Positions 24,647-51,589 of a DNA stretch of 57,108 nucleotides are shown here, in pieces. The stretch's first letter is position 1. Each line of letters begins with the position of its first letter. Below the pieces are notes generated by a model, which made no database searches, was not told the origin of the DNA, and saw only the letters and a list, made by a program, of their open reading frames with translations. The DNA lies in assembly GCA_964567085.1 (NCBI GenBank), contig CAZMKU010000002.1:1-57108 (forward strand). The letters are read 5' to 3'. The DNA comes from an uncultured Clostridium sp. Its GTDB lineage: Bacteria > Bacillota > Clostridia > Oscillospirales > CAG-272. The position numbers were made by a program, and so were the translations under genes.

Positions 24647-24710
24647 TAAACATTTATATCGGCGCGGTAATACCGTGCCGATAGCTTCAAAAACTACGAA
24701 AGGCACATCT

Positions 24711-26048
24711 ATGGACTATACGATCAATACTTCGTGCGGCGCCCTGAAGGGCTGCGCCGGACGCGCTTCGGGCATCGCTGCTTACAAAGGAATTCGATAC
24801 GCCACCGCACGCCGATGGGAATATCCGCAAATAGTAACTCATTGGGAAGGCGTTTACGACGCTACCGAGTACGGCGCGTGCAGCTATCAGCCACGCTCCT
24901 TTTACAATGAAGAGGAAAACCTGAAGAAAATATTTTATTACAACGAATTTCGCAAGGGTGAATCATACGCGTACAGCGAGGACTGTCTTTTCTTAAACGT
25001 ATTCACTCCCGAAAACGCGAAGGACGGCGATGACCTGCCCGTTCTCGTTTATATTCACGGCGGCGGATTTACAGGCGGATGCGGCCACGAAAAGCATTTC
25101 GACTGCCCCGAATGGCCGCGTGAAAATATAATCGGCGTTACTATCAATTACCGCCTTGGCCCTATGGGATTTATGTGTCTGCCCGAGCTCAAGGAAGAGG
25201 CAGGACACACGGGCAACTACGGTCTTTTCGACCAAATGACTGCCATCCGGTGGGTAAAGAACAACATTTCGGCATTCGGCGGTGACCCCGATAATATTAC
25301 TATTATGGGACAAAGCGCGGGCGCGGCAAGCGTCCAGCTTCTCTCAACAAGCCCCCTGACCGAAGGATTATTTCAAAAGGCGGTAATGTCAAGCGGATGC
25401 GGTTTGGGCAGCTTTATGTCCGTGAACGCAGAAAAATCCGCGGAATTCTGGCAGCAGATTATGAAAAGATGCGGCTGTGACACTCTTGAACAATTCCGCG
25501 CCCTCCCTCCCGAGAAGCTTTTCGAGGCGTGGCAGACGGGCAAAAAGGAAATTAAGGGCGGAAATGCCGCGACCTTCCCTGTAATCGACAACTACTTCTT
25601 TTCAAAAGACTTTGTTCCGCGCGACATTCCCTATATGGCAGGCTCGACGAGTGAGGATTTGGCGCCTCCCATATTGCACGGTGTGACGAAAAAGTGGATA
25701 TCAAAAAGAAGCACCCCAAGCTACTCCTGGTATTTTGACCGTCGGCTCCCCGGCGACGACTGTGGCGCATGGCATTCCGCAGATCTTTGGTATTGGTTCG
25801 GCACGCTCGATAACTGCTGGCGTCCTATGGAGCATAAGGATCATTCACTTTCCGAGCAAATGGTCAAATACCTCTGCTGCTTTGCTAAAAGCGGAGATCC
25901 CAACGGAGAAGATTTACCCGAATGGACTCCCTCATCAAAAAAGCAAAAGAGAGTTCTTATGCTCGGTGAGAAAGAAACGCATATGGGTAAGCCTCCCGCA
26001 TTAAAAATGATAAAAACCATGCTTACGAGCAAATCCGTGGGCGAATAA
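24711..26048 (+). CDS. Type-B carboxylesterase/lipase family protein
   Basis: Oxyanion-hole motif VYIHGGGF and the nucleophile elbow GQSAGA. The overall length and pattern fit para-nitrobenzyl-esterase-like enzymes. No signal peptide is evident. Confidence 0.85.
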   Translation: MDYTINTSCGALKGCAGRASGIAAYKGIRYATARRWEYPQIVTHWEGVYDATEYGACSYQPRSFYNEEENLKKIFYYNEFRKGESYAYSEDCLFLNVFTPENAKDGDDLPVLVYIHGGGFTGGCGHEKHFDCPEWPRENIIGVTINYRLGPMGFMCLPELKEEAGHTGNYGLFDQMTAIRWVKNNISAFGGDPDNITIMGQSAGAASVQLLSTSPLTEGLFQKAVMSSGCGLGSFMSVNAEKSAEFWQQIMKRCGCDTLEQFRALPPEKLFEAWQTGKKEIKGGNAATFPVIDNYFFSKDFVPRDIPYMAGSTSEDLAPPILHGVTKKWISKRSTPSYSWYFDRRLPGDDCGAWHSADLWYWFGTLDNCWRPMEHKDHSLSEQMVKYLCCFAKSGDPNGEDLPEWTPSSKKQKRVLMLGEKETHMGKPPALKMIKTMLTSKSVGE

Positions 26049-26090
26049 AAATAAACACCTTCGAAGGATTTTCCTTCGAAGGTGTTTTTC
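26046..26090. terminator. Bidirectional intrinsic terminator between convergent genes
   Basis: A perfect 14-bp stem, ACACCTTCGAAGGA-TTT-TCCTTCGAAGGTGT, is flanked by an A-run and a T-run. Confidence 0.85.
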
Positions 26091-26104: not shown

Positions 26105-27343
26105 TTACTCTGCGGTAAGACCCGAGCGCTCAATACCTTCAACGAGGTATCTCTGCAAAAATGCGTAAAGCACAACAAGAGGTGCTATTATCATAAGAAG
26201 CGACGTATTTCTGATCGTTTCATTATAAAGCGACTGTCCTACGTAGTCAAGTCTCAAGGAATTGGGGATGTCGGTTGCTATATCCTTCAACAAATAGAGA
26301 TTGTTGGTCGATCCCGACTTCCACGTTCCCGAGGTAGTCAAAAATAGCTTTCCTGTGTAGAACGTATCCGTCCACTGCCAGCAGAATGCAAACAGGAACA
26401 CCGTGATCATCATGGGCACGGACATAGGAAGAATGATCTGGAAGAACGTTCTGAAGTCACCCGAGCCGTCGATGTATGCAGATTCTTCAATGGAATCGGG
26501 GATTCCGCGGAAGAACTGACGAAGCATAAAGATATACAAGCCGTTCTTGAACGCAAGACCCGTCAAGGAAAGAATGATGAACGGAACTCTTGTGTTCAAA
26601 AGATTAATGGCGTTATCCTTTGATATCAAAACGATATTTTGCGCATTCTTGGCGAACATCGGACCGAGAACGCTATTATTCTTAAACGTATTCGCAAAGA
26701 ACATCGCGATGTCGTGTAAAAATCCGCCTTCCTTGAATATGTCGATCTTGGCAAGAACCTTATCAACACCCTCGATGCCAACGGATGCGCCGCCCGAAAG
26801 GAAGTTCACTATGCCAAATATATCGAAGGACTTAAAGCCCGTATAAATAGCATAATAAAGCGTCTTGTGAGGAACGACCATCGTAAATATAACGAGAAGG
26901 AATATGATCTTATTGCCCTTGAACTTATATTTAGCAAGACCGTAAGCGACAAGACAGCAGGTAAACGTCTGGAGTACCGCGCACGTAAACGAAAGCCTAA
27001 ACGTATTCCAGAACGCCTTCAGATAGTGGTTTTCCTTGAATATCGCCTTGTACGTGTCAAGCGTAAAATTTCTCGGAATAAGCCTTACCGTCGCGTCAAC
27101 CAAGTCCTCGGGGGACATAAACGAACCCGTTATCTTTGTAAAGAAGGGATAAAGAACTATGTAAGCAATACCAAGCAAGAATATAAATCTTGCGATCTTG
27201 ATTACTACACCCGAAAGAAAGTAGAAATTGAGGAACTTTGCTTTAAGTCTTTCCTTAAGCGGAGTTCTCTCGAACTCAACCCTGATCTTGTTCTTGGATT
27301 CTTTCTTTATTCTGGGAGCAGAATTTGTGTTTTGAACATCCAT
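26105..27343 (-). CDS. Carbohydrate ABC transporter permease with a large internal insertion
   Basis: 412 aa of BPD_transp_1 type with the EAA loop EESAYIDGSGDFRTFFQIILP. About 100 extra residues (FKSFDIFGIV...NAINLLNTRV) sit between the TM segments, compared with the usual ~290-aa CUT1 permease. Confidence 0.85.
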   Translation of the reverse strand: MDVQNTNSAPRIKKESKNKIRVEFERTPLKERLKAKFLNFYFLSGVVIKIARFIFLLGIAYIVLYPFFTKITGSFMSPEDLVDATVRLIPRNFTLDTYKAIFKENHYLKAFWNTFRLSFTCAVLQTFTCCLVAYGLAKYKFKGNKIIFLLVIFTMVVPHKTLYYAIYTGFKSFDIFGIVNFLSGGASVGIEGVDKVLAKIDIFKEGGFLHDIAMFFANTFKNNSVLGPMFAKNAQNIVLISKDNAINLLNTRVPFIILSLTGLAFKNGLYIFMLRQFFRGIPDSIEESAYIDGSGDFRTFFQIILPMSVPMMITVFLFAFCWQWTDTFYTGKLFLTTSGTWKSGSTNNLYLLKDIATDIPNSLRLDYVGQSLYNETIRNTSLLMIIAPLVVLYAFLQRYLVEGIERSGLTAE

Positions 27344-27359
27344 ATCTCTACCTCCTCTC

Positions 27360-28307
27360 TTAGTCTTTACGCTGATAGAATACGAACATTGACATAATAC
27401 CCGCCACTACGGCAATAATGAGCATTACCATCAAGAAATACATCCATGACATCGCAGCGCCAACCTCGGGCTCCTTCTTATTGATATTATCAATAAACGT
27501 CATAACTGTATTATTTTCAGTCGTAAACGCGTCGATTACCGTATACACCGCATTTACGAGGATCATCGGGCTTATCATCGGGAAGGTGATCTTCCAGAAG
27601 GTTTCCCATCCCGTCGCGCCGTCGATCTTACAAGCCTCGTAAATGGCAGGAGAAATCGACTGAAGACCCGAGAGGAATATAAGCATCTGTACGCCCGAAC
27701 GGTTTACAATGTCGTAAATATTATTTATGATCTGAACAACGTATTCTACAAGCTCCTGTCCGACCTTCATATTGGAGAACAGGGCTTCGATGTCCAACGC
27801 CGATACGATATCGGAGGACGCGCTCGACCCCGCGCCACTGTCAATTCCCACGGAATCCGTGGACATTGATGATTCAGTGGGGGTCATAATACCCGTTGCA
27901 AGTACAACAGGAAGGAAGAATATAGCGCGGAACGCTGCTCTTCCCGCCATCTTCTGATTAAGAAGAATAGCCATAAAAAGTGAAAACAGCAAAATAGCAG
28001 GTATATCGAAGATCATCTCGCCAAGACCCGGCAAGAGAGTTTCGAGAAACGCGTGCTCTGTGAGAGCTGTCTGGTAGTTACGGAAGCCTACAAACTCAGG
28101 CTCAAGTCGGATATCCTCCACGAGCATAAACGTGGACTTGAGCGAGTTTACAATAATAGGAAGGTAAACACAAACAAAACCGATTATAAAGGGGAGGACA
28201 AACCACCAGCCCGCGCGAGCCTTTCGCTTATCGAGAGATGCTATTTTCTTTTTCTTGGGAGCGGCATTTCTGCCGCTCTTACATTTAAGCTTTACTTCGC
28301 TTGTCAT
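27360..28307 (-). CDS. Sugar ABC transporter permease
   Basis: CUT1 MalF-like permease with the EAA loop YEACKIDGATGWETFWKITFP. The ATG at 28307 is correctly spaced from AAGGAGGAG, whereas the ORF-track GTG at 28313 is too close to it. Confidence 0.85.
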   Translation of the reverse strand: MTSEVKLKCKSGRNAAPKKKKIASLDKRKARAGWWFVLPFIIGFVCVYLPIIVNSLKSTFMLVEDIRLEPEFVGFRNYQTALTEHAFLETLLPGLGEMIFDIPAILLFSLFMAILLNQKMAGRAAFRAIFFLPVVLATGIMTPTESSMSTDSVGIDSGAGSSASSDIVSALDIEALFSNMKVGQELVEYVVQIINNIYDIVNRSGVQMLIFLSGLQSISPAIYEACKIDGATGWETFWKITFPMISPMILVNAVYTVIDAFTTENNTVMTFIDNINKKEPEVGAAMSWMYFLMVMLIIAVVAGIMSMFVFYQRKD

Positions 28308-28322
28308 ATTCACATCTCCTCC

Positions 28323-31300
28323 TTATTTCTTTATAACTACAAAATCATATGCGGGGATCGTGTAGCGAACACCGTCGTACACGAGCGTTACCATATAGTT
28401 GTTGTAGTTGAGAAGCATCGTCTTATATGCCTCGCCGTCAAGTGTTCCGTACGTTACGGCAATAATATTATCCGTAGCGTAATGGGATTTTTCTTCCTCT
28501 TCCTCTATGACGGTTTCCTCGTCTTCGATCTCAAGCTCAAGTCTTGCTTGAATTTCTTCTTCAGTTATCTTAAGCTCCTCGGGAATATTGCCCGCAAAGG
28601 ACGCGCTGTCAATATAAGCGTTAACTATAGCTTCGAGCGCGATCTTGCTGTCAGTCATAGACTTCATAAGAGTATACTCGGCACGTGTATTTACGTCTTC
28701 GCCCGAGCGGTACATGATCTCACCGTCAGAGTCAAGAATGTAATTGCCCGCCTCGTCAACGAGAGCGTAGATCGTAACGCCGTCAAGCTCGCCCGCTTCC
28801 TTATACTTGATCGCGGTGTAAACAGAACCGTCAAAGAAGTAGTAATCAGCTATCGAGCCATCTTCATTCTTGGAATAGTAGTAATACTGACCGTTAGCCT
28901 TTCTGCTCATATAAACACCGTTACCGCAATCCTTTTCCTCTGAAGGAACAACGATTACGTTCTGGCCATCCAAATTCCAAGCCTCGTCGTCGCCCGCATC
29001 TGCCGCTACGATATCGTAGTACTTGAAATCCTCGATGCTGTTACCTACGAGCGCAACCTTTTCGTCGTCAATGGTAACTACGTAGTAAACCTGGCTACGG
29101 TAAGAGCCCGTCTTATTGCCGTCGGCATCGTATCCGTAGTAACGGATAATATCGCTTCCCTTTGTGGGAATCTTCGTATCGGATGATACAAAAGCAAATC
29201 TTGCCTCTGTAAGAGCGCTCTCTGCAACCGCGATCTGAGATATAGCCTGTTCAGTAAGCGGAAGCGCAGGATTATCAAGCAGCTCTGCGGCCTTGATAAC
29301 CTCAACCGCCTCGTATGCGGAAGCAACCCTTTCGTTGAGCTCCTCAATGGTAGACTTGATCTGTTCAAGGTCCTTAACGAGCTTAACGATAGCAGAAGTC
29401 AATCTGTTCTTCAAGGACTTAACCTGTGTATAAAGCGTCTCATAGCCCTCATCACCCTCGCTCAGTTGTGCAAGAGCAGCGCAATTACTATTATAAGTTG
29501 CAAGGAACTCGTTGATGAGCGCCTCATCCTCCTTAGCCGTTACGCTAAAGATCTTCCAAACCTCTTCATACTGCTTGTTAGCCCAGATCTGAATATCACG
29601 GCATTCCTGTCTTGCTGCAGAAACCTCATTCAGCTTTTCCTGCTTTTCAATTTCAACGATGTTTTCCTGCATATTCTGGAATTCTTCCATTTCCGCAAGA
29701 ATATCACTCTGAATTTCGTCAAGGTCAGGCACACGCTCTGCATTTTCAACGTACTCGTGTCCGATAATGAACTTATCCTGAACGTCATAGAGAGCATCAT
29801 TGAGCTTGTTGTAAATATCAACTATATCATCCTTCCAGATGTCGTATCTTACGGAGTAGTACTTAGAGAAGAACTCGTTTTCCTTAAGATTCTGTGTATT
29901 CCGGTAGGACAGGATAAAGTAGGGGGACGCTCCGTTTTCAATTGCCTTGAGCATTGCGTATTCCATATTACCCTCCATGTTAAGAGGAGAGCCCGCAAAC
30001 TGAACGGAGCCGTGGAGAACGACGCCCAGGAAAGGAACTGATTCGGAGGAGATGTTATAACGCGAGGAGTCAAGAGCAACACCCAAAATATGGTCAACGT
30101 ACTTCCAAGAGTACGAGTTTCCGCCCTGTGTCATAACCTGATTATAGGTATTGTCAAGATACTCGAGCGCGCTGACGGTATAATCCTTGGAGTCTTCTCT
30201 GTTATAAGGCTCATCCTCATCAAAGTCGGAGTTGAGCGTGTAACCGAGCGACGCTACGGAAATACCAATAACGTTGTCGAACTTTTCTGCATAATTCTTC
30301 GTGATCTTTTCGTAGAATCTCGAGAAATATGCGGGAGAAATTGCAAGCTCGTAGTAGTTTACCATACCCTGCGTTGCAGTGTACGTTCTACGGCTCGCGT
30401 AACGGTCGTCGATGGTCTTAACCACGTGCTTGTTGAGGTTAATGCCGTCGAACATACCCGTATACTTAACGTAAGCGAATTCAAAGTCGGGGAAAATACC
30501 GAGATTCGTATTATCTCCCTCGTTTACCTCAGCGGCGTAGTTAAGAAGCTCCTGGAAGCCGCTCTTGCCGCCAACCGCGCTTTCAATCTTAAATCGGTAA
30601 GGAACCTGTGATTCAAGACCTCCGTTCGCATAGCCCGTAAGCTTGAAGTTTACGTTCGTAATGCCGTCCTCTCCCGCGGAAATATCCTCGTACATCGTCC
30701 TTATATCCTCAAAGGTCGTAAGAGGCGTCATCGTCTTTACGGGAATCGAGAGCACCTTTTCAAGCGTCTCGAGCGCGCCGAAGGTTTCAATGTAAAGCGG
30801 GATATCCTCCGTAAGGTCATCGCTCGTAAGAGGTGTCAGTATAGGATCGTCACCCGACATAAGATAATCTCTGTAAGCAACCGCCATACCGAACCAGGAC
30901 GTATCGTACGTCTCGTATTCAGTACCCTCGGGAGCCTCGTAGTCGGAAAGAAGAACGTATCTTATTCTGTAGCTTCCAACGTACTTCTTATCACACGTAA
31001 CCGTCCATTCGTTGTTTTCCTGATTTACGGAAAGCGAATCGGAAATAGTATACGAGTCCGTAGGTCTGGGAGTCACCTTTATCTGGAGCGAGTTATACTC
31101 GCTCTTTGAGCCGTGATGGTTTGTGGAAAGCTCGGAGAGCGCGTCGCCCTCTTCTATTATCGCCACAAAGCCTCTCTTATCGGTAATAGCCTCCTTCGTC
31201 AGCACCGAGCTATTCAAAATATCCGCATACGTAAGATCGGTTCCCGATACGACGAAGCTTCCTATTCTGTTTCTGATCTTCGCGTTAACGGTTTCATCAA

Positions 31301-32678
31301 GGTACTTGTCGGCAAGACCTGCGTTGAGAACTACCTCGAATTCCTCGCCTGTATTATCGTCAACACCCTTGTACTTGTAATAAACCGTTTCTTCAACCGC
31401 GCCGAATACGGGATAAGAAATCGACTTCTGATATTCTCCCGTAACCGCATGGTATGCATAGTCCTGACCGTATACCTTACCGCTTACCGTTTTCGCGGTG
31501 TTGATATTGAGGTCCTGATAATCAAAGAGCGCGCCCGAGCCGTCGGGGAAGAAGTTGTAGCCCTCGTAAGAGTTGCTGCCCGCGCCCATATAAGGGAGAA
31601 CAGTAACGGATTCAAGTCTGTAGAGAGACTCGTTAAATCTGATACCGTTTGCGGGAAGTCTTACGGAAAGACCGTTCTCATCAATGGTATATTCAAGAGC
31701 CATCTTGAACAAGGGGGGATTTGCGTCCTTTGATACGTACTGAGTCTGAGTATGATCCTCTTCAAGATCCTCATAGGTATAATCGGGAGCATAGCTCTTG
31801 ATTATATTTTCGCATCTTGCGAGCTCGTATTCAGTAGCATTGGGGTCAAACACGTAAACCGCCATAGTCTTTGTAGCAGGATACTGGGAATTGATAAGCT
31901 CCTGCTCCTTCTTAGACATATTGGACGTGTCGTAGAACGTGTAATATGCCTGGAATTTTTCAAGCTCGTGTCTTGCGTCTCTGTCACCGGGGGCAATATT
32001 GCTCTCCATAGTGGCGAGAATTTCCTCGAATCTTGACTTTTCAATAAGCATAGGTACAAGCATCTTCGCCTGTTCACGTCCCATTGTGTATTCTACACGA
32101 ATACCGTTTTTGATATTTTTTATCGTTATCTGATTTCTGTAAGCTGCCTCTCTGAAGCTTAAAAACGTATTCGTAACGTTGTCAGAGATGCTTGTGTACT
32201 TAACGATGATCTGAGAGAGAAGCTCTTCCTTTGTGGAGTTATCGTTCTCATCCGCCTTGGAAGCGCCTACGTCGTAAGGATTGGAGAACAATATCTCATC
32301 CGTAACCTTATTTCTGAAAGCAACCTCACCGCTGTAAGAGTCTACGTAAAGCTCGTAATCGCCAACCGTTCTCCTGAGCTCCATCGTTGCGAGCTTTTCC
32401 TCGGGAGTCGCGTAGATAGTCTCCTTATATAAAGTAGCCTTATCTACCGTGGTTGCCTCCTCGGATTCCTCCTCGTCCTCGGCAACCTCGGAGGTATCAG
32501 TCTCCTCCCCGCCGTCTTCGCTGTCCTCACTGTCAGTGAACTCGTCATCCGCAAATTCATCGTCAAGCTCGTCGTCGAACTCATCTGCGGATACGCCAAT
32601 CGTCATCAAAGCTGTCATTGAACCGAGAATTAACAAAACAGTTAAGAGCAGCGATATTATTCTAATGTAATTTTTCAT
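28323..32678 (-). CDS. 1451-aa secreted or anchored protein, DUF5696-like, with an acidic N-terminal tract and an internal coiled-coil
   Basis: N-terminal signal/anchor (IISLLLTVLLILGSMTALMTIGVSA), then a roughly 45-aa Asp/Glu run. Blocks such as LYVDSYSGEVAFRNKVTDEILFSNP and VLPYMGAGSNSYEGYNFFPDGSGALFDY resemble DUF5696 proteins as I remember them. No HMM was run. Confidence 0.55.
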   Translation of the reverse strand: MKNYIRIISLLLTVLLILGSMTALMTIGVSADEFDDELDDEFADDEFTDSEDSEDGGEETDTSEVAEDEEESEEATTVDKATLYKETIYATPEEKLATMELRRTVGDYELYVDSYSGEVAFRNKVTDEILFSNPYDVGASKADENDNSTKEELLSQIIVKYTSISDNVTNTFLSFREAAYRNQITIKNIKNGIRVEYTMGREQAKMLVPMLIEKSRFEEILATMESNIAPGDRDARHELEKFQAYYTFYDTSNMSKKEQELINSQYPATKTMAVYVFDPNATEYELARCENIIKSYAPDYTYEDLEEDHTQTQYVSKDANPPLFKMALEYTIDENGLSVRLPANGIRFNESLYRLESVTVLPYMGAGSNSYEGYNFFPDGSGALFDYQDLNINTAKTVSGKVYGQDYAYHAVTGEYQKSISYPVFGAVEETVYYKYKGVDDNTGEEFEVVLNAGLADKYLDETVNAKIRNRIGSFVVSGTDLTYADILNSSVLTKEAITDKRGFVAIIEEGDALSELSTNHHGSKSEYNSLQIKVTPRPTDSYTISDSLSVNQENNEWTVTCDKKYVGSYRIRYVLLSDYEAPEGTEYETYDTSWFGMAVAYRDYLMSGDDPILTPLTSDDLTEDIPLYIETFGALETLEKVLSIPVKTMTPLTTFEDIRTMYEDISAGEDGITNVNFKLTGYANGGLESQVPYRFKIESAVGGKSGFQELLNYAAEVNEGDNTNLGIFPDFEFAYVKYTGMFDGINLNKHVVKTIDDRYASRRTYTATQGMVNYYELAISPAYFSRFYEKITKNYAEKFDNVIGISVASLGYTLNSDFDEDEPYNREDSKDYTVSALEYLDNTYNQVMTQGGNSYSWKYVDHILGVALDSSRYNISSESVPFLGVVLHGSVQFAGSPLNMEGNMEYAMLKAIENGASPYFILSYRNTQNLKENEFFSKYYSVRYDIWKDDIVDIYNKLNDALYDVQDKFIIGHEYVENAERVPDLDEIQSDILAEMEEFQNMQENIVEIEKQEKLNEVSAARQECRDIQIWANKQYEEVWKIFSVTAKEDEALINEFLATYNSNCAALAQLSEGDEGYETLYTQVKSLKNRLTSAIVKLVKDLEQIKSTIEELNERVASAYEAVEVIKAAELLDNPALPLTEQAISQIAVAESALTEARFAFVSSDTKIPTKGSDIIRYYGYDADGNKTGSYRSQVYYVVTIDDEKVALVGNSIEDFKYYDIVAADAGDDEAWNLDGQNVIVVPSEEKDCGNGVYMSRKANGQYYYYSKNEDGSIADYYFFDGSVYTAIKYKEAGELDGVTIYALVDEAGNYILDSDGEIMYRSGEDVNTRAEYTLMKSMTDSKIALEAIVNAYIDSASFAGNIPEELKITEEEIQARLELEIEDEETVIEEEEEKSHYATDNIIAVTYGTLDGEAYKTMLLNYNNYMVTLVYDGVRYTIPAYDFVVIKK

Positions 32679-32701
32679 ACTATCCTTCTCCTATCTGTAA
32701 A

Positions 32702-34855
32702 TTAAAGTCGGAACCGAATTTCTGTAACGATATTTGTTACGAGACTCACCATCTTCGAAATAAGCGTCGAGAACAAAATCGCAATAAACATAATAAAGAT
32801 CATCGCAACCGCGGTGCCCGCGATAGTGATTATATTCTTACCCATCGTGTAATCGTGTGTAACCTGCGTACCGAAGAAGATAAGCAATGCAAGCCAGATA
32901 AACGCAAACGTCGTAATAAGGTTGATAATGCTTATTTCCGTAGAGATGCAGAAGTTCGAAAAGATCGTCACGGGGATAATAAGGATCGGCAGGGGAAGCA
33001 AGCTGTAAGAGCAAGCAATGAAGATGTCCTTGAAGCTACCTTCACCCTCAAAAAGCGTGGTAAGACACCAGTTTGCAACTACGAAAAGGAAGAGCGGAAC
33101 GAGAACGCTGAGCGCCTGACCCCAGATAGTTCCGTAATTGCCCTCGGGATTCATAAGATAGCCCGAGCCAACCGACTGGTAGAAGAACGCGATAATTGTA
33201 ACCGCGATATATACGAGCGACGCTCTTATCGAGCCGCGCTTTTCGTGCTTCAGATCCCAGAAGCCGTCAAACGGATGGACCATAACGTAGAAGCCGTATG
33301 CAAGCTCCTCGCCAAATGTCTTCTTTTTACCCGAAACCGCTGCAGCCTTATTGACCTTCGTAATAAACTTATTGAAGAGAACAACGCCTGCGATAATAAC
33401 GCCTATGATCGCGATAAGAACGAGGAAGTAATTTGACATCCATTCCTTTCTTATTTCCTTATAGGAGTTAGACCAGTTTTCCGTGTCGTACGCGGATTCG
33501 AAGTATTCAAGCGACCTTTCATAGTCACCGTTTCTGTACATAGCCTGACCGATACCTACGTAAGCCGCGTCGAAGTTCGAGTTGGACTTAAGCACGTCGG
33601 TCCATTTGTTGATAGCCGTATCGAAGTCCTGATCGTTTTCAGCCGCAATAGCCTCAAGGATCGTATCGCCGTATGGCTCGCGCTTAAATACGGTAAAGTT
33701 ATTTGTTGACTGCGAGGAGTCAAGGACGAGCATCTTGTCGCCCTGATAGGTAATAGCCGTGATTCTCACGATGCTTCCCATCATATTACCCGTTTCGCCA
33801 AAGGCAAAGAGCAGGTTGCCGTTCTTATCGTAGGTGTAGATACGGCTTCTCTTCTGGTCGATGATCGACCATGTTCCCTCTTCTCCCTCCGCAACGTCTA
33901 CGATCTTGGATACGCCGTTGTCATCAGCATCAGCGTCCTTGGAGGCGTTGCTGTAGTCGATCTCACCGACAGGCGGCCAGAATCCGTTACGCGCCATGAT
34001 CTCGTCACCGCTCGTGTTGAGCTTCTTAACGGGCATATACGTACCGTCCGTAGCCTTCGCCAGGATCTGGCTCTGAACCGTAGCCTCGGAAATAGTCGAC
34101 GTGGTTACGTAGATAAATCCGTCGGAGCTGAGCGCGATATTGTTAAACTCGGTAGATACGTTTTCCGTCTGCTGAGACTGCTGCTCTTCTGTACGAAGCT
34201 TTCTCCAGATCTTTTCCCACGCGGAAATTTCAGTTGCCTGCGCGCCGATAAATTTCTGGAACTGACCGTTATCGGTCAATATGATAATACCCTGATAGGT
34301 GGATGCGGATACAACGAAAAGTCTGTTGTATGCGTCAACCGCAAGCGCTATGGGCTCATACTTCGCATCGTCGCCAAAAAGGCTTGATTCGGGCGCTTCG
34401 AGTATTTTCTTGAAGCTGCCGTCGAGATTGAACGCAACTATTCGGGATTTGCCGGTGTCGCACACCCAGATCGTATCGTCGCTTACGAACACGCCCTTGG
34501 GGCCCGAAAGTGTATCGTCGTTGCCGACGCTGTTCTTGAACGTAGAGATCTCGAACTTGAATTCATAGTATCTCGAAAGAACCACGATTCTGTTGTTACC
34601 CGTGTCCGCGATATATACGTTACCTGATTTATCGGTAATAATATCGCTGGGAGAATTCAAGGCAACCTCGAGTCCCATTTTTTCGGAGTCTATCGTATCC
34701 TCAACGTCATACGCGTCAGGAGAAAGAAGCGGATATCCGTCGATAGAATACGTGTACGTCTGATAAGCAGATGATGCCTGAGCTCCTATTATTGCGCAGG
34801 AGGCGATCATAATTACTGCAAATACAACGCACAATATTCTTGTGATGTTTTTCAT
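32702..34855 (-). CDS. Fusion protein: signal peptide, NHL-repeat beta-propeller, TPR, and a Yip1-type 5-TM domain
   Basis: NHL-like repeats (GNVYIADTGNNRIVVL, IWVCDTGKSRIVAFN, NRLFVVSAS...). A TPR-like segment (AINKWTDVLKSNSNFDAAYVGIGQAMYRNGDYERSLEYFE). The Yip1 hallmark HPFDGFWDLKHEKRGS is followed by multiple TM helices. Confidence 0.7.
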   Translation of the reverse strand: MKNITRILCVVFAVIMIASCAIIGAQASSAYQTYTYSIDGYPLLSPDAYDVEDTIDSEKMGLEVALNSPSDIITDKSGNVYIADTGNNRIVVLSRYYEFKFEISTFKNSVGNDDTLSGPKGVFVSDDTIWVCDTGKSRIVAFNLDGSFKKILEAPESSLFGDDAKYEPIALAVDAYNRLFVVSASTYQGIIILTDNGQFQKFIGAQATEISAWEKIWRKLRTEEQQSQQTENVSTEFNNIALSSDGFIYVTTSTISEATVQSQILAKATDGTYMPVKKLNTSGDEIMARNGFWPPVGEIDYSNASKDADADDNGVSKIVDVAEGEEGTWSIIDQKRSRIYTYDKNGNLLFAFGETGNMMGSIVRITAITYQGDKMLVLDSSQSTNNFTVFKREPYGDTILEAIAAENDQDFDTAINKWTDVLKSNSNFDAAYVGIGQAMYRNGDYERSLEYFESAYDTENWSNSYKEIRKEWMSNYFLVLIAIIGVIIAGVVLFNKFITKVNKAAAVSGKKKTFGEELAYGFYVMVHPFDGFWDLKHEKRGSIRASLVYIAVTIIAFFYQSVGSGYLMNPEGNYGTIWGQALSVLVPLFLFVVANWCLTTLFEGEGSFKDIFIACSYSLLPLPILIIPVTIFSNFCISTEISIINLITTFAFIWLALLIFFGTQVTHDYTMGKNIITIAGTAVAMIFIMFIAILFSTLISKMVSLVTNIVTEIRFRL

Positions 34856-34872
34856 TAGATTTCCTCCTAAAA

Positions 34873-35745
34873 TTAGTCTTTCATACCGCTGGATCCCATC
34901 GTTTCAATAATGTTGGACTGGGATACAACGAATACCAGAATAGGTACCATCATCATAATAACCTGAGATGCCGCCGATGCGCCCGCGCGCTTGATACCGC
35001 CCGCGGTGATCTGTCCGATAGCGTAGTTAAAGGACTTGAGCTGCTCGGAGTGAATATACATCGAAGAGCCCTGATTCCAGAGTGACTGGAACGAATAAAT
35101 GATAAGCGTAAGCCAAGCAGGCTTAACCATAGGCATCGCGATCACCCAATAGGTTCGAAGCTCGCCCGCGCCGTCAAGACGCGCGGATTCAAGAACCGTG
35201 TCGGGAACGTTCGTGTCCATAAACTGCTTCATAAGGTAAAGACCGAGCGTAGATGCCCATGCGGGAACGATAATTGCAAGGTAAGAGTCAAGCCAACCGA
35301 ATGCAGACATTATAATAAAGGAAGTAATCGTTGTAACCGTGGAGTTAAACATAAGAGAAGTCTGCACGAGCTGGAACATTCCCTTCGCACCGGGGAACTT
35401 GATCTTTGCAAGCGTGTAGGCTGCCAGGGAAGCGATGAACAGGTGTCCGAACGTTCCTGCAACCGAGGTGAATATCGTGTTGAATATGTATCTTGAGAAC
35501 GGAGCCACCGAAGTATTCATAAGCATAAAAAGTGACTTGAAGTTATTGAGCGTAGGGCTCATAACTATGAATTTCGGAGGATACATCCAAAGCTCGTCAA
35601 GAGGCTTTAACGACTGCATTATAACGTAAAACATCGGAAGGAACATAAACAATCCGAGAATTACGAGTATGACCGTAATGAACGCGTCGCCTCCTGCGGA
35701 GCGGGCAAGTACGACTTTATGTTTTCTGGTTCTGAGCTTTGCCAT
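34873..35745 (-). CDS. Carbohydrate ABC transporter permease (MalG-like)
   Basis: 290 aa with 6 TM segments and the EAA loop LESARLDGAGELRTYWVIAMP. Its start lies 1 nt after the upstream permease stop. Confidence 0.9.
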   Translation of the reverse strand: MAKLRTRKHKVVLARSAGGDAFITVILVILGLFMFLPMFYVIMQSLKPLDELWMYPPKFIVMSPTLNNFKSLFMLMNTSVAPFSRYIFNTIFTSVAGTFGHLFIASLAAYTLAKIKFPGAKGMFQLVQTSLMFNSTVTTITSFIIMSAFGWLDSYLAIIVPAWASTLGLYLMKQFMDTNVPDTVLESARLDGAGELRTYWVIAMPMVKPAWLTLIIYSFQSLWNQGSSMYIHSEQLKSFNYAIGQITAGGIKRAGASAASQVIMMMVPILVFVVSQSNIIETMGSSGMKD

Positions 35746-35746
35746 A

Positions 35747-36691
35747 TTACGTACCTACCTTCGAGAGTATTTTCTTAACGAGAGCATTCGCGCCGATCAT
35801 TATCACGAACAGCACCACGGCAATAGCCGACGCGTAGCCCGTCTCGTATCTCATACCGCCGTAGTCACTCAGATGGTGCATGATCGTGTGACACGAATAG
35901 TTTACAGACGGGAATCCGCAGAGCGCGTCAACGACGCCGCCGAAGCCGAACGAGCCCGTAATCGCCATTACGGCACCGAACATAAGCTGAGGCTTCATGG
36001 ACGGGAGCGTTATGTAATAAAGCTCCTGCCATCTGTTCTTAATTCCGTCAACCGCGCCAGCCTCGTAAAGCGAACGGTCAACGCCCTGAAGTCCCGCGAT
36101 AAAGGACAGGAAGGATGTACCAAGAGACGTCCAGAGCGCAACGACTATACAGAGCGCCATGGCGTATTCTTCTCTTTGGAAGAAGTTGATTTCCTCTTCT
36201 ATGAGGTTATATTCAAGAAGCATAGCGTTTACCCAACCGTAGGAGTCGCCCGAGAAGAGCGTACCCCAGATAAGATATACGTTACCTGAAATAGAGGGGG
36301 CGTAGAATACAAGGGTTACGACCGCTCTTATCTTGGGAGGAAGCTCGTTGATGAACCACGCTACCAGGAAGGACATAAGGTAGGATGCAGGTCCTACTAT
36401 GCAGGCAAATATAAACGTATTCTTGCATGCAGTTAAGAATATATCGTCATCGAAGAACAAAGTTATGTAGTTATCCAAAAATACAAAATCAGGGGCCTGA
36501 AGCATATTGAAGTCCGTAAAGCTAAGCGCTATGGAAAGCAATACAGGAAGCACCGTGAAGATCGTGAAAAGAATCATATAGGGCGCAACCATAACGTATG
36601 CTATCCAGTTACGCTTCATTTCTTTCCAAACCCACTGCGCCATCGTCATATCCTTTCGGGCCGCAGCTTGTTTTTCTGCTTTCTTAAGCAT
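35747..36691 (-). CDS. Sugar ABC transporter permease (MalF-like)
   Basis: 314 aa with the EAA loop YEAGAVDGIKNRWQELYYITLP. The RBS is AAAGGAGAG. Confidence 0.9.
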   Translation of the reverse strand: MLKKAEKQAAARKDMTMAQWVWKEMKRNWIAYVMVAPYMILFTIFTVLPVLLSIALSFTDFNMLQAPDFVFLDNYITLFFDDDIFLTACKNTFIFACIVGPASYLMSFLVAWFINELPPKIRAVVTLVFYAPSISGNVYLIWGTLFSGDSYGWVNAMLLEYNLIEEEINFFQREEYAMALCIVVALWTSLGTSFLSFIAGLQGVDRSLYEAGAVDGIKNRWQELYYITLPSMKPQLMFGAVMAITGSFGFGGVVDALCGFPSVNYSCHTIMHHLSDYGGMRYETGYASAIAVVLFVIMIGANALVKKILSKVGT

Positions 36692-36739
36692 TTGTTCTCT
36701 CCTTTTTTAGATTTTTAATTTATTTAGTTAATCTCAATA

Positions 36740-39700
36740 TCAATACTTTGACATCGCGTTTGCCGCATCGCTGAGCGCTACGGAAAGGAAGTAGAGAACG
36801 TTGTCCTCGCCGAATCTGTTCGTATCAGCGATATCCTTGTTCTGAACCTGCATTGTTTTAATATTCATCGCATCGCCCTTAAGGTCGGTCTTTGCAGACT
36901 CGCCTACAAGAGCCGCAACCTCTTCGGCAGCCTCGCGGATCGTCGTCATATCGTCGCTCTTGATAGCGGATCTCACCTTATTAAGAAGAGCGGTATTTTC
37001 AAATCCTCTTTCTACGAGCGAGTCAACAGCTTTCTGCGCCTGAGAAAGTCGCTTGGATGCAAGTGTTTCACCCTGCTCAAGCGTTTCAAGTCCGAATTCG
37101 GTTCTCTTTCTGGAAATTTCCTTGTTGATCGTGTTAATGTAAGAAAGCAAAGCTTGCTTGGGATCTTCCTTATCGTTATATGCCGACAGGAATGCAAAGT
37201 TTGTATAACGCGCGACAATATACGCGCCGGGATAGTTGGGGATAGCAGCAAGTCCGTCGAGACCTCCGGGGCCGTCGTGACCCTCGATCTGAGCCGAGAT
37301 CTGAGCGAATTCCTCCTGTGTCCAAGGCAAGCTTTCAAGAGCGTCAATGTTTGCCGTGGGGTGCTTTGCGGAGGGACCCATAATAGCAACCATCTCGTTG
37401 GTGTACTCCGTCTGGCAGTCCTTACCCGTATACCACTTCATAAATTCCCAAGCGTCCTCTCTCTGATCCTCCGCGCCCTTAACCATTACGGTTGCGGCAA
37501 CACCCGAGATGGACTGGTTATTTATCACGCCGTCCTCGTTCTCAATACCGGGCAGCGGAACGAATTCCCAAAGGCCCTCGATTTCCGTGGCGAATACCTT
37601 GAGCTGATTGTAAAGACCCGTGTAGTCACCGATCAAGATAGGCATTTCACCCGTTCTGAAACGGTTTGCAGCGTCGTAAACGTAGGGGAACTTATAGTCC
37701 GTAAACAGCTTACACATCTTTTCAAAGGACTCAAGACCCACCTTCGAATCGAGATTGATTCTCATACCGTCATCAGCGAAAAGGTCACCGCCCATCTGGT
37801 AGAGGAACATTCTGTATTCAGTCGTAAGACCGATCTCCATCTCTCTTGCCTGAAGCAGAGGAATGAGCGCCATTACGTCCTCCCACGTTTCGGGAATAAC
37901 ATTTTCGTCGACCTCGTCACCGTCACTCATTTCACTGTAAAGGTCGGCAAGCACGTCCGTACGAACGAACATCATCGCGAATGACTGAACCTCGGGAAGA
38001 CCGTAATAGTGTCTTACACCCTCCGCGTCCTCAATACCGAGAACCAGCATAGCCGCGTTGGTAAAGGATTTCGTTACCTCCTCAAATCCGTCGTTTTCCT
38101 CAATAGGAAGAACCGCCGAACGGATCGCGTAGTTGATAACGTCGTCCTGTCCGAGAGAGAGATACACGTCAGGTCCCTCACCCGCCAAGATCGAGGGAAG
38201 AAGCGTACCGCCCGCTACGAGCTTAAGATCCACCGTTATACCGGTAGAATTTGTAAAGTCATTATTTATAAGGTTACGAACGACCTGGAACTGATCTCGT
38301 CCCGAAGCCATCCAAACCTCGACGCCCTCAACCTCCTCAGTGGTCGTAGCGCCTATCGCGTTATAGTCACGCGTAAAGCTTGCAAAGAAGGATTTCACCT
38401 CATGCCAGAGCGCCTTGAAGAAGCCTGCGCCCGCCTTGGGCATATCCTCCTCGGGAGACTGAATAATAAGGTAGTCCATCTGCAAGGGCTGTGTCTTTGC
38501 ATCCGAGAGGAAGGTACCGAGCGTACCGATATAGGATTTAAGACGGGAGAGATTCTGCGCGATCTCGCTCTCGTCAACAGCCATCGTATGAAGCAGGTCC
38601 GCTATCTTCTGGAGCGTACCGACGTTCGCGGACTTCTGTCCCGCGAGCTCGGTCAATACCTGAGCAACACCCGGCTCGGGATAGGCCTCACTGGGCTCGT
38701 TGTCGAGAATTCTCGACTGCTTGTTCATATCAACGAGCACGTTATACATAATTCTCTTGAAGCCGTAGTCACGGTCAGCGTCGGGAGTCGTACCCGTAAG
38801 CTGAATAATGGAAAGGTAATCGTCGTTGATGCTATCAAGACATTCCTGAACCTTATTTACGATCTCGCCCATCTCGCCGAGGGTAACCTCAAGCTTTATC
38901 GTGTAAACGACGCCTTCCTTGAAGTAGATCTGATAGCCGTCGTCCGAGTCGGAATTTCTTAAGTCCGTAACCTGCCAGTTATCACTGTAATTATATACAA
39001 GCGCCTTCGCTTCCTCGAAGGGAATACCGTTATAATAACCCGCTTCGCCCTCGCTCACGCCTTCGCCGCTGTAAATGTAAAGCGCGCGGTTTACGTACAT
39101 ACCGTCAAGAACGTTCTGTCTGAATCTCGTAACGATATCGTAAAGACCGCTCTCCCCTTCACCGAGCCGGAACTTATAGGTGATAGCCTGACCCGCCGTC
39201 TGCCACTTGGACTCACCTATAGTGTTGAGCAAGGTCACCTCGGGGCTCGAGGGGGACGTTGCCGCGCTGGATCTGTCCTCAAGCGCGTATATCGTCTTGT
39301 CAGTCGTTGTATTCGTAAATTCGGCCTCGATCTTGATGCTGCCCGTTCCGTTGGAAACGTCACCGAGAGCCGCTCTATATTCCTCATACGTAGGAATTTC
39401 TTCCGCGGGACAAAGGGTAATACTCTTTATCGCCATATCCTCGTTCTTGCCCTCGAGAGTAATGGTATTGACCTTACCCGCCTCGAACACGAACTCAAAG
39501 GGTGACGAATAGAAGCCCATGCTGTCCTTGATCTGATATTCGGACCAGATAGGAGCCTGCTCGGCGTCGGGACGAAGCTCGTTGCCCCAAACGTCAACCT
39601 TCATAAATCTGATCGAATACTTCTGGCAGAAATCAGAAGCCGCCTCGGTCCAGATCTCAGGATACTCGAACGCAAGATTTCCGTCGGCGTTGATCTTTGC

Positions 39701-40288
39701 AACAAGACCTGCCGCCTCGCCCTCGCTCCTGACGGTGGATTCATCCTCCTTGCCCGTATAAACGCCATCCTGGTAAAGATTTATCCAGTTTTTCTGGAAC
39801 GCAAGATAGCGAGCCTCCTTGAAAGGAACCTCATCGTTGATCCTGAGCACTCTCTCTATAGCCGCAGGCTTACCTTCAACCGCATAGTACTCAATAACGA
39901 TCGTGTACATTGCGGTCTCGGGAACCTCAAATGCCCAAGTAACAGAGCCCGAACCCGACGTGTAAAGTGCCTCTACGCCGCCGTAGGTGTCGACCTTCCA
40001 ATCGGAGCTCTGCTCGGAAACGAGATCATTTACCGCATCAATGACAACCGTATTCCCAGCCTTTGCGGGCGACACACCAATCGCGCCCGACAAATACTCA
40101 TCGTAGGAAATGGCATTGAGCAGTTCTCTTATTTCCTGAATTTTGCTGGTATTAGCCGTTGAGGAGCTCGAGCTCGATGACGTGGCGGTAGAGCTCTCCT
40201 CGGCAAACGCCGGCAATGAAAAACAACCAATAACAAACATCAAACAAAGCAACATTGCTGTTAATCTTTGAAATTTCGTCTTTCCCAT
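36740..40288 (-). CDS. Giant (1182-aa) extracellular solute-binding protein with N-terminal CBM-like modules
   Basis: The start is set at the ATG at 40288 (MGKTKFQRL..., AGGAGGA RBS, signal peptide ...LPAFAEESS). The C-terminal ~550 aa resemble family-1 SBPs (GPDVYLS, ETWEDVMAL, AWEFMKWYTG). The N-terminal ~600 aa carry two beta-sandwich/CBM6-35-like patterns (SGSGSVTWAFEVPETAMYTIVIEYYA; GSIKIEAEFTN). Confidence 0.8.
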   Translation of the reverse strand: MGKTKFQRLTAMLLCLMFVIGCFSLPAFAEESSTATSSSSSSSTANTSKIQEIRELLNAISYDEYLSGAIGVSPAKAGNTVVIDAVNDLVSEQSSDWKVDTYGGVEALYTSGSGSVTWAFEVPETAMYTIVIEYYAVEGKPAAIERVLRINDEVPFKEARYLAFQKNWINLYQDGVYTGKEDESTVRSEGEAAGLVAKINADGNLAFEYPEIWTEAASDFCQKYSIRFMKVDVWGNELRPDAEQAPIWSEYQIKDSMGFYSSPFEFVFEAGKVNTITLEGKNEDMAIKSITLCPAEEIPTYEEYRAALGDVSNGTGSIKIEAEFTNTTTDKTIYALEDRSSAATSPSSPEVTLLNTIGESKWQTAGQAITYKFRLGEGESGLYDIVTRFRQNVLDGMYVNRALYIYSGEGVSEGEAGYYNGIPFEEAKALVYNYSDNWQVTDLRNSDSDDGYQIYFKEGVVYTIKLEVTLGEMGEIVNKVQECLDSINDDYLSIIQLTGTTPDADRDYGFKRIMYNVLVDMNKQSRILDNEPSEAYPEPGVAQVLTELAGQKSANVGTLQKIADLLHTMAVDESEIAQNLSRLKSYIGTLGTFLSDAKTQPLQMDYLIIQSPEEDMPKAGAGFFKALWHEVKSFFASFTRDYNAIGATTTEEVEGVEVWMASGRDQFQVVRNLINNDFTNSTGITVDLKLVAGGTLLPSILAGEGPDVYLSLGQDDVINYAIRSAVLPIEENDGFEEVTKSFTNAAMLVLGIEDAEGVRHYYGLPEVQSFAMMFVRTDVLADLYSEMSDGDEVDENVIPETWEDVMALIPLLQAREMEIGLTTEYRMFLYQMGGDLFADDGMRINLDSKVGLESFEKMCKLFTDYKFPYVYDAANRFRTGEMPILIGDYTGLYNQLKVFATEIEGLWEFVPLPGIENEDGVINNQSISGVAATVMVKGAEDQREDAWEFMKWYTGKDCQTEYTNEMVAIMGPSAKHPTANIDALESLPWTQEEFAQISAQIEGHDGPGGLDGLAAIPNYPGAYIVARYTNFAFLSAYNDKEDPKQALLSYINTINKEISRKRTEFGLETLEQGETLASKRLSQAQKAVDSLVERGFENTALLNKVRSAIKSDDMTTIREAAEEVAALVGESAKTDLKGDAMNIKTMQVQNKDIADTNRFGEDNVLYFLSVALSDAANAMSKY

Positions 40289-40654
40289 TAAAAACTTTCC
40301 TCCTGCTGATTTTTTCGGCGGATAAGCCGCCATTTAGGTAAAGCTTACGCATAATGCAGCGCGATACACGTAAACCGGATAATAAATAATAGCAATCCCT
40401 TGCGGTAAAAGGAAAAACCACTATAAACGCCGAACGGCGTCCTCTGGCACGCGGCAACAACACTATGCTATGCAATTGACTGTAAATTTCCGACGCCCCA
40501 CGAGTCCGAACCCTCAAGGATAGCGAAAATTCACATTTAAACACGGACAAACGCGAGGTTTCGAAGCCGTTGGCAAAAAATCACACCGTCCGCGCCAAAC
40601 TCAGGTCATCGCATAACAAATTCGTTGCGCACTATGCCCTAAATTTACTCTAAT

Positions 40655-40684
40655 ATAATAACACATTTGGAGTAAAATTGTCAA
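40655..40684 (-). promoter_or_regulatory. Candidate promoter of the 14-kb ABC operon
   Basis: The minus strand reads TTGACA (40679-40684), 18 nt, TATTAT (40655-40660). This implies an untranslated leader of about 360 nt. Confidence 0.4.
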
Positions 40685-41489: not shown

Positions 41490-42131
41490 TTATCCAATAA
41501 TATTTTCCAATTCGGAGAAATCATCAAACACGAAAGCGCCGCAGGCCTCAAGTCTCGCTCTATCCTGATGTCCGCCCGCAAACAGAGCGCAGTCCGCGCC
41601 AAGTATTTGAGAAACCTCGTAATCGTGAGTGGTATCGCCTATATAGAGCGCCCTCGCATCGGGATTGCTTTCGCGCCAAGCCCTCGCAAGCTCTCCCTTA
41701 CCCGCGGCGTGAATGTTGGTAAGACCTATTACCTCGGTGAAATGCTCATAAACGTCAAGCTGGCGCAGTTGATCCGTCAGCATACCTATCTCGCACGCCG
41801 ACAAAACGAGCTGATCTATTCCCCTTCCCCGAATATATTCAAGCAGCTCTCTGACCCCGCGAACGATCTTCGGGTCCCTAGTATGCTCAAGATAAAGCTC
41901 CACCCACTCAACCGCAAGCACGTCGTAAGGCGTTTTGGTAAAATCAAATCCGATTCTCTCGTAGTAATCCTTAACGGGAAATCCGAACGCCCTCCTGTAG
42001 GTATCCGTATCGGGAATTTTCGGCACACCGTACTTTTCGAGCAAAGCATTCACACTAACAATGCCGGGCTCGACGTCATCGAGAATAGTCCCGTTAAAAT
42101 CCCAGATTATATGGGTATATTTATTATTCAT
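41490..42131 (-). CDS. HAD-superfamily hydrolase (phosphoglycolate phosphatase-like) with motif I DFNGT
   Basis: The ATG at 42131 (MNNKYTHIIWDFNGTILDD) has a GGAGA RBS. Motif II is VLSAC, with K...GDTTHD as motifs III/IV. The 97-aa Arg-rich N-terminal extension in the ORF track overlaps the upstream SBP gene and is spurious. Confidence 0.85.
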   Translation of the reverse strand: MNNKYTHIIWDFNGTILDDVEPGIVSVNALLEKYGVPKIPDTDTYRRAFGFPVKDYYERIGFDFTKTPYDVLAVEWVELYLEHTRDPKIVRGVRELLEYIRGRGIDQLVLSACEIGMLTDQLRQLDVYEHFTEVIGLTNIHAAGKGELARAWRESNPDARALYIGDTTHDYEVSQILGADCALFAGGHQDRARLEACGAFVFDDFSELENIIG

Positions 42132-42150
42132 TATTATTTCTCCAAAATAA

Positions 42151-42174
42151 CAGCCCCCACGCGCGTGAGGGCTG
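42151..42174 (-). terminator. Intercistronic hairpin or partial terminator between the SBP and HAD genes
   Basis: The minus-strand RNA reads CAGCCC-UCACGCGCGUGG-GGGCUG followed by UUAUUUU. Confidence 0.45.
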
Positions 42175-42189
42175 TATAAAATCAAATTC

Positions 42190-51573: not shown

Positions 51574-51589
51574 TATTATTGCCCTTCTA

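Follow-up and report, generated by a model that had tools for sequence, protein, structure and literature searches.

A conserved seven-gene ABC transporter cassette with a predicted glycosidase-like DUF5696 protein, a candidate glycan import system of gut Clostridia and Bacilli

Carbohydrate uptake transporter 1 (CUT1) importers of the ATP-binding cassette (ABC) class, such as E. coli MalEFGK2 and the Firmicute systems that share MsmX or MsmK, are built from MalF/MalG-type permease pairs with EAA loops, a solute-binding protein (SBP) of the SBP_bac_1/8 type and a MalK-type ATPase. Permease pairs and an SBP of these kinds recur in the cassette described here, which comprises seven genes in a 57,108-nucleotide stretch of DNA (the window) from an uncultured Clostridium sp. 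(assembly GCA_964567085.1, contig CAZMKU010000002.1), a MalK-type ATPase gene lying within the cassette in some of its relatives. In transcriptional order the genes encode a giant SBP, permeases A1 and A2, an NHL/TPR/Yip1 membrane protein, a DUF5696 protein of 1451 residues, and permeases B1 and B2. Compared with CUT1 importers, the cassette encodes two permease pairs that are not identical, both within a single conserved operon, and an SBP of about three times the usual size, in which two β-sandwiches and a helical bundle precede the SBP fold. NHL/TPR/Yip1 and DUF5696 proteins are obligatory partners, which we know from no characterised CUT1 system.

Other described systems share single features with the cassette. 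The retaining α-glycosidases of glycoside hydrolase (GH) families GH129, GH101 and GH31 resemble the DUF5696 model in having an N-terminal β-sandwich followed by a (β/α)8 barrel, whereas DUF5696 shows no detectable sequence relationship to them, bears a signal/anchor segment, carries a 450-aa extension in the gut clade and is always encoded within a transporter operon. In Bifidobacterium, an extracellular GH101 endo-α-N-acetylgalactosaminidase frees a small sugar that is taken up by an ABC importer dependent on the galacto-N-biose/lacto-N-biose (GNB/LNB) SBP, a logic like that proposed for the cassette, although enzyme and importer are encoded at separate loci there; use of mucin O-glycans by the cassette is just one possibility among others. 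In Bacillus YknWXYZ, as in the cassette, the gene for a Yip1-domain membrane protein accompanies those for an ABC transporter, and YknW, a member of the Yip1 family, modulates assembly of the YknXYZ complex (PMC4887032). However, YknYZ is a MacB-type exporter with a membrane-fusion protein, whereas the cassette has the hallmarks of a type I importer, and its Yip1 domain is fused to or encoded beside an extracellular NHL propeller and TPR, unlike that of YknW. Finally, the juxtaposition of carbohydrate ABC transporter genes and glycan-active enzymes that is found in Gram-positive polysaccharide utilisation loci (gpPULs; Sheridan et al. 2016, PMC5320581) is also seen around the cassettes of Butyrivibrio, Cohnella and locus L091 (loci of the comparison set are numbered with the prefix L).

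We interpret the cassette as a machine for surface glycan capture, processing and import, that is, a fixed chassis combined with differing GHs and regulators, and assign this reading a probability of roughly 55%. The giant surface SBP would capture glycan through its β-sandwiches, which resemble carbohydrate-binding modules (CBMs), its helical bundle and its oligosaccharide-type fold, and the secreted or anchored DUF5696 protein may cleave or trim the glycan outside the cell, as its retaining α-glycosidase-like architecture suggests. The NHL/TPR/Yip1 protein would act as a scaffold that holds the SBP and the DUF5696 protein close to the translocators; the products would enter through two distinct heterodimers of MalF/MalG type, A and B, perhaps with a division of labour; and a MalK/MsmX-type ATPase, presumably encoded elsewhere in this genome and found in-operon in three Bacilli versions, would power transport. 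The building blocks themselves are already known (CUT1 permeases and SBP, Yip1, NHL and the Pfam family DUF5696). To our knowledge, no characterised ABC importer brings together two obligatory permease pairs, a CBM-extended giant SBP, an NHL–Yip1 protein and a glycosidase-fold protein, nor has a fixed seven-gene chassis recurring with different GH sets been described for gpPULs.

Conservation of the cassette was assessed first among gut Clostridia. Scanning one representative genome for each GTDB species with a sequence pattern identified 386 stretches encoding close relatives of the gut-clade subtype, the best 80 of which were used; these come from metagenome-assembled genomes (MAGs) of gut Clostridia, Eubacteriales and Oscillospiraceae from humans, ruminants, horse and other animals, together with Clostridium sp. 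CAG:448. When the seven window proteins were searched by tblastn against these 80 loci and L001–L003, all seven genes were recovered in identical order in 71 of the 83 loci, and the remaining 12 all end at a contig edge, so that the linkage lies far beyond chance (71/71 evaluable loci with all seven genes in order). Median identity across the gut-clade loci was highest for A2 (83%) and A1 (78%), intermediate for B1 and the Yip1 protein (63% each), B2 (57%) and the SBP (52%), and lowest for DUF5696 (48%).

The arrangement also extends to distant lineages. Searching annotated plasmids by tblastn revealed DUF5696 homologues of ~25% identity on Butyrivibrio fibrisolvens pNP243 and on a megaplasmid of Paenibacillus cellulosilyticus, both with the order SBP (~980 aa), two permeases, NHL/Yip1, DUF5696 and two permeases. 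Six more lineages conform to this pattern, which brings the distant cassettes to eight: the full arrangement is present in P. mucilaginosus, Neobacillus kokaensis, Cohnella luojiensis and two MAGs, and on a 4.3-kb contig (L084) just Yip1 5′ and permease B1 3′ of DUF5696 are visible. Linkage of DUF5696, Yip1 and permease genes, which the initial annotation of this DNA had described as recurring in Paenibacillus and Clostridia, is thus retained outside this genome: all loci examined have it, those of Butyrivibrio, Paenibacillus, Cohnella and Neobacillus as well as those of gut MAGs. The same annotation's view of a conserved yet functionally undescribed operon is borne out: the operon is conserved in all these loci, and no paper describing it was found. 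A full-text literature search returned nothing relevant on Yip1 with sugar ABC transporters other than the papers on YknW and on gpPULs.

In P. cellulosilyticus, P. mucilaginosus and Neobacillus the first gene of the operon encodes a MalK-type ATPase (ABC_tran, OB_MalK and TOBE_2 domains by Pfam in the latter two, annotated as UgpC in the first), which assigns the cassette, as judged from sequence, to the CUT1-type importers. The absence of the ATPase from the window cassette is lineage-specific. Here, the initial annotation had listed no nucleotide-binding subunit in the operon, and indeed the entire 57-kb window lacks an ABC ATPase gene; its sole pair of LSGG and Walker A motifs falls within an SMC-like gene at its left end. 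Firmicute CUT1 systems commonly share a trans-encoded MsmX-type ATPase, and the missing gene probably reflects this common arrangement.

In cultured lineages the cassette is, by its gene content, embedded in typical sugar-utilisation loci with varying enzymes and sometimes regulators. Its neighbours are GH43, a histidine kinase and a response regulator in Butyrivibrio; LacI, GH26, GH113 and GH9 in Cohnella; LacI, GH30 and GH35 in L091; and GH2 and GH38 in Neobacillus. The substrate of the cassette probably differs between lineages. Under the published gpPUL definition (PMC5320581), the cassette-bearing Butyrivibrio, Cohnella and L091 loci classify as gpPULs, and the window locus falls outside it, with a transporter and a candidate enzyme only and no regulator or CAZy-classified enzyme.

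All four permeases contain BPD_transp_1 (PF00528) and show partial NCBIfam matches to the MalF/MalG, UgpA/UgpE and GlcT/GlcU models. The motif EAA-x3-G-x9/10-I-x-(L/F/M)-P is readable in each of the four, so each should engage an ATPase. B1 and B2 have enlarged extracellular loops, and A and B permeases share just 22–33% identity over partial lengths only. By contrast with this distance between pairs, each window protein, both permease pairs included, is closest to its positional counterpart in distant cassettes: A1 is 56% and 43% identical to its counterparts in the Butyrivibrio/Paenibacillus cassettes, B1 43% to that of Butyrivibrio and 34% to that of Paenibacillus, and B2 41% and 33% to those of distant cassettes. 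Because the second pair occupies the same place in all distant versions examined and orthology holds position by position, the two pairs are an ancient, fixed feature of the module and the seven-gene form is its canonical state; the initial annotation's description of an expanded version has to be abandoned. Its further proposal that one SBP serves two pairs fits the window locus, but several cultured lineages add an adjoining SBP gene of ordinary size. Such genes (450–540 aa) adjoin the cassette in Butyrivibrio, Neobacillus and Cohnella (L086 16534–19964, L089 17–1369, L090 1555–2931) and in none of the gut-clade loci; they could encode cognate binders of one permease pair.

The giant SBP starts with a signal peptide and a possible lipobox (VIGC), and its SBP_bac_1 and SBP_bac_8 matches reach Pfam E-values of 7e-18 and 4e-16. 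Its AlphaFold2 model (pLDDT, the predicted local distance difference test score, 68) is organised into β-sandwiches at residues ~80–295 and 315–470, a helical bundle (473–598), the SBP fold (~650–1065) and a helical tail. Foldseek matched the model to oligosaccharide SBPs (e.g., 5ysf) and maltose-binding protein at E 1e-10; with the whole chain as query only the SBP fold was matched and the N-terminal domains were not identified. Weak CBM_35/Golvesin_C matches were obtained in the first β-sandwich of SBP orthologues. Residues 1–1067 are homologous to the Butyrivibrio SBP, N-terminal extension included. The C-terminal helical tail of ~115 aa (36740–37090) is restricted to the gut clade and missing from the Butyrivibrio/Paenibacillus versions.

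The 717-aa membrane protein combines a signal peptide, an NHL β-propeller, TPR, one transmembrane helix and a multi-pass Yip1 domain, with propeller and TPR predicted to be extracellular. Yip1 (PF04893) scored 51.6 bits against a cutoff of 28.6 and covered profile positions 2–172 of 173, and hydropathy analysis gave overlapping hydrophobic segments at residues 541–711. Sequence matches in the PDB were to NHL propellers and TPR proteins. NHL and YIP1 are separate genes in Butyrivibrio and Cohnella. NCBIfam holds no model for this protein or for the 1451-aa DUF5696 protein.

DUF5696 is a large family, with >1,897 homologues in a clustered protein collection and 4,146 representative clusters at 50% identity (E ≤ 1e-3); its Paenibacillus-type subfamily occurs in dozens of named Paenibacillus and Cohnella species, and a few database entries already label the protein "glycoside hydrolase". 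The window protein scored 422 bits against PF18952 (gathering cutoff 25.6), and the Butyrivibrio and Paenibacillus homologues scored 615–623 bits with the full model covered. Its layout consists of an N-terminal signal/anchor, an acidic linker, a core of β-sandwich and (β/α)8 barrel (residues 75–1000; window 29679–32456) and a C-terminal extension. This extension of ~450 aa (28323–29678), a coiled coil plus a β-rich domain, is restricted to the gut clade, and the joint occurrence of clade-specific tails on DUF5696 and the SBP might be a sign of interaction.

The core was modelled by AlphaFold2 with 33 homologues (mean pLDDT 71; predicted template modelling score, pTM, 0.61), giving a β-sandwich followed by eight alternating strand/helix units. 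Foldseek against the PDB retrieved GH129 enzymes (ZgGH129, 5opq, E 1e-12; NagBb, 5wzn, E 1e-9), GH101 enzymes (EngBF, 2zxq, and SpGH101, 5a59, E 1e-9 to 1e-7) and GH31 enzymes (YihQ, 5aed, and α-xylosidases, E 1e-6 to 1e-5), all with probability 1.0 and with alignments spanning almost all of the 926-residue core. From these matches DUF5696 is predicted to hide a GH129/GH101/GH31-like glycosidase fold. The initial annotation had suggested exactly such a structural search of the 1451-aa protein while stating that the operon has no hydrolase; that statement stands at the sequence level, where no GH family hidden Markov model matches, but not at the level of predicted fold. Since DUF5696 lies outside any defined GH family with a known substrate, its glycosidase-like fold does not refute the initial annotation's idea of a functionally undescribed polymer-capture and uptake system.

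Conservation was then examined with 263 gut-clade sequences, 113 of the Paenibacillus/Butyrivibrio type and a MAFFT alignment of 17 diverse members. D379 (PDGSG), D406 (YGxD) and D818 ((S/T)D(F/Y)) are each kept in 16/17 aligned sequences, E914 (IExGA) and N900 are invariant (17/17), and R827, N854 and H889 are nearly invariant. In the GH129, GH101 and GH31 enzymes the catalytic nucleophile is an Asp that follows barrel strand 4, and the acid/base is a carboxylate that follows strand 5 or 6. In the model, D818 follows predicted barrel strand 4 and the conserved residue after strand 5 is an Asn (N854); D379, D406 and E914 sit elsewhere. This pattern, taken from the alignment, is compatible with an active site and falls short of proof. 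Candidates tried and set aside included D731 (in FPDFDF, at the end of barrel strand 3), rejected as nucleophile because it is kept only in the gut clade and not in the Paenibacillus/Butyrivibrio subfamilies, and a resemblance between VMTQGGN and MMWAGD, the acid/base motif of YihQ, on which we do not rely because the underlying hhalign alignment was non-significant and not reproducible. Phmmer and profile searches for a sequence link between DUF5696 and a solved structure gave nothing relevant in the PDB.

Several observations weigh against glycan processing and import as the role of the cassette. Pfam at E ≤ 10 matched the DUF5696 protein to DUF5696 only and to no GH family, and hhalign of DUF5696 against E. 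coli GH31 YihQ and YicI was non-significant, aligning differing short fragments in each run. It mapped neither a nucleophile nor an acid/base residue relative to GH31, and no catalytic residue is confirmed; the one Asp considered on strand 3 is lost beyond the gut clade. The models are of moderate confidence (pLDDT 71 for DUF5696, 68 for the SBP), and the D818 loop falls under pLDDT 50. Adjacent GH families vary by genome, which makes it unlikely that substrate-specific depolymerisation falls mainly to DUF5696. Within the window, the flanking ORFs scanned with Pfam contain no regulator, ATPase or further GH. Around the cassette in 84 gut-clade loci there is no conserved neighbour of these kinds, the recurrent flanks being housekeeping and sporulation genes (RlmI-like methyltransferase, SpoIIGA, SufBD, AlaRS and SpoVT). 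The full-text search found no paper with "DUF5696" or "PF18952" and no experimental data.

Much of this bears on whether DUF5696 is an enzyme at all. In the same importer it could be non-catalytic, its glycosidase-like fold kept for binding, gating or docking; it might, for instance, take over the part of a classical SBP in feeding long oligosaccharides to pair B, with pair A served by the giant SBP. The gene order, which splits into SBP-A1-A2 and Yip1-DUF5696-B1-B2 in every lineage, would suit such a split of tasks, and so would the failure to map a canonical nucleophile and acid/base pair, the loss of the strand-3 Asp across the family, the position of DUF5696 as the least conserved part (median 48% versus 78–83% for pair A) and the varying adjacent classical GHs, which could do the catalysis. 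However, D379, D406, D818, E914 and N900 are universal or nearly so in the family, as is typical of an active site; the gut-clade cassette is accompanied by no other enzyme gene; and the extra ordinary SBP of several cultured lineages could itself serve pair B. On balance a non-catalytic role seems doubtful to us, though it is the alternative we take most seriously.

Import with processing could also take a more tightly coupled form, in which a new ABC importer supercomplex of Gram-positive bacteria uses the Yip1/propeller scaffold to couple the glycosidase-fold protein to the second MalFG translocator. Depolymerisation and uptake would then share a single assembly, with one translocator fed by the CBM-bearing giant SBP and the other directly by the enzyme, making the cassette a Firmicute counterpart of the Sus "utilisome" of Bacteroidetes, a fixed chassis for different glycans. 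This proposal is speculative, and we consider it unlikely in its full form.

A different purpose was considered for the same import activity, namely that the cassette recycles or remodels glycopolymers of the cell's own envelope or spore and re-imports the fragments, not nutrients. The gut-clade cassettes occupy core-genome sites without a regulator or GH, often near PBP5/DacB-like, Spore_YtfJ, SpoIIGA and SpoVT genes, and the permease sequences are very highly conserved, both of which would fit. The flanks vary, though, with no neighbour in more than 20 of the 84 loci, and cultured lineages carry plant-polysaccharide GHs with LacI or two-component regulators, pointing to nutrient use; self-glycan recycling is accordingly judged improbable. 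Export or assembly of an extracellular glycan, for which the large extracellular proteins, the Yip1 protein and the exporter context of the bacterial Yip1 precedent YknW might speak, is very improbable, given that BPD_transp_1 permeases bearing EAA loops, SBP_bac_1 and a MalK-type TOBE ATPase mark type I importers and that the cassette has no linked glycosyltransferase or polymerase gene.

The neighbourhoods of the gut-clade cassettes can be summarised as follows. The most frequent flank, a housekeeping RlmI-like methyltransferase gene, occurs in 20/84 loci. SpoIIGA is a neighbour in 14 loci and SpoVT in 6, and a sigma-factor gene lies beside the cassette in 15 loci including the window, adjoining SpoIIGA in L002/L003 (examples of sporulation flanks: L002/L003 21006–22612, L026 19481–20521 and L033 17874–18488). 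The sporulation-gene neighbourhood is probably mere core-genome context; the sporulation and cell-wall neighbours are the sole hint of an envelope or sporulation link.

The open reading frame (ORF) list gives seven co-directional minus-strand genes between 26105 and 40288, separated, from SBP to B2, by 48, 1, 17, 23, 15 (or 9) and 16 nt (Table 1). Both the tight packing with gaps of 1–48 nt and the domain assignments of the initial annotation were reproduced, the latter by Pfam for all seven proteins. Alternative starts exist for the SBP (40333 or 40288) and for B1 (28313 or 28307). For the SBP, 40288 appears the better choice because AGGAGG lies 8 nt 5′ of it, this ribosome-binding site (RBS) is invariant in orthologous leaders, and the resulting N-terminus MxKTKFQRL is common to orthologues. 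Judging from the DNA, the seven genes form a single unit, preceded by a strong promoter-like site and closed by a bidirectional terminator.

Table 1. Coordinates and properties of the cassette genes and of the elements that bound them.
Feature	Position	Strand	Length	Assignment
Bidirectional intrinsic terminator hairpin	26053-26087		16 bp	closes the unit
Permease B2, MalG-type	26105-27343	-	412 aa	large inserted loop; EAA loop intact
Permease B1, MalF/UgpA-type	27360-28307	-	315 aa	inserted extracellular loop; EAA loop intact
DUF5696 protein	28323-32678	-	1451 aa	Pfam PF18952, E 5e-126
NHL/TPR/Yip1 membrane protein	32702-34855	-	717 aa	Pfam NHL, TPR, Yip1
Permease A2, MalG/UgpE-type	34873-35745	-	290 aa	Pfam BPD_transp_1; EAA loop intact
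Permease A1, MalF/UgpA-type	35747-36691	-	314 aa	Pfam BPD_transp_1; EAA loop intact
Giant extracellular SBP	36740-40288	-	1182 aa	Pfam SBP_bac_1/SBP_bac_8, residues 682-979
5′ leader	40289-40654	-	~365 nt	conserved islands; hairpin just 5′ of RBS
Promoter-like site	40655-40684	-		TTGACA-18 nt-TATTAT, TG extended -10, 11/12 matches

The promoter-like site (40684–40655) scores highest in the region, and in the alignment its −10 region and the next 60 nt are conserved among orthologous loci. A leader of 365–500 nt precedes the SBP gene in L001, L004–L006, L008, L035 and L036 as well. Right after the −10 element the leader contains the conserved island AGTAAATTTAGGGCATAGTGCGCA...TTGTTATGC.ATGACCTGAATTT, followed by a further island, AATTGCATAGC.ATAATGCTG, and then by a GGCGG...CCGCC hairpin ahead of the RBS. 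In a single-sequence fold the first two islands pair together (z = −2.3); the RNAalifold consensus fold is weak, and Rfam found no family in the window or the leader. The leader may be a cis-regulatory element or a set of operator sites.

Among the flanking ORFs scanned, those with Pfam matches are mostly housekeeping genes, including ScpA/B, a PBP5-type carboxypeptidase, a pseudouridine synthase, sigA, dnaG, Lon and topoisomerase I. Genes for an MFS_2 (GPH-type) sugar transporter and a COesterase-family carboxylesterase (23033–26048, plus strand) run towards the cassette and use the same bidirectional terminator. They were rejected as cassette members and are regarded as an insertion, apparently lineage-specific, outside the unit, because they are absent from the otherwise syntenic L001, whose cassette occupies the same chromosomal position as in the window. 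On the other side, a 664-aa protein (42190–44184, minus strand) encoded 5′ of a HAD hydrolase has no Pfam, NCBIfam or PADLOC family and has equally placed counterparts in 5 related loci, one of them L001 (674 aa); the HAD ORF (41490–42422, TTG start) overlaps its gene and is probably called too long. Further away (48844–53881, minus strand), a 909-aa protein with TIR, TPR and BspA-type leucine-rich repeats (LRR) is encoded beside a 231-aa protein without a family and an SPFH/Band-7 protein with double zinc ribbons. PADLOC matched nothing in this TIR/TPR/LRR cluster, which is a candidate defence or signalling cluster.

The cassette is widespread, both in uncultured gut Clostridia of humans and livestock and in cultivable Paenibacillus, Cohnella, Neobacillus and Butyrivibrio. 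Given its strict seven-gene synteny and the in-operon ATPase of the Bacilli versions, its function is directly testable in cultivable hosts. If the coupled machine is true, it would represent a new ABC importer architecture, in which four membrane subunits are combined with a Yip1 scaffold and an embedded enzyme; DUF5696 could then define a new glycoside hydrolase family, and the system would help to explain how Firmicutes, which have no outer membrane, take up complex glycans.

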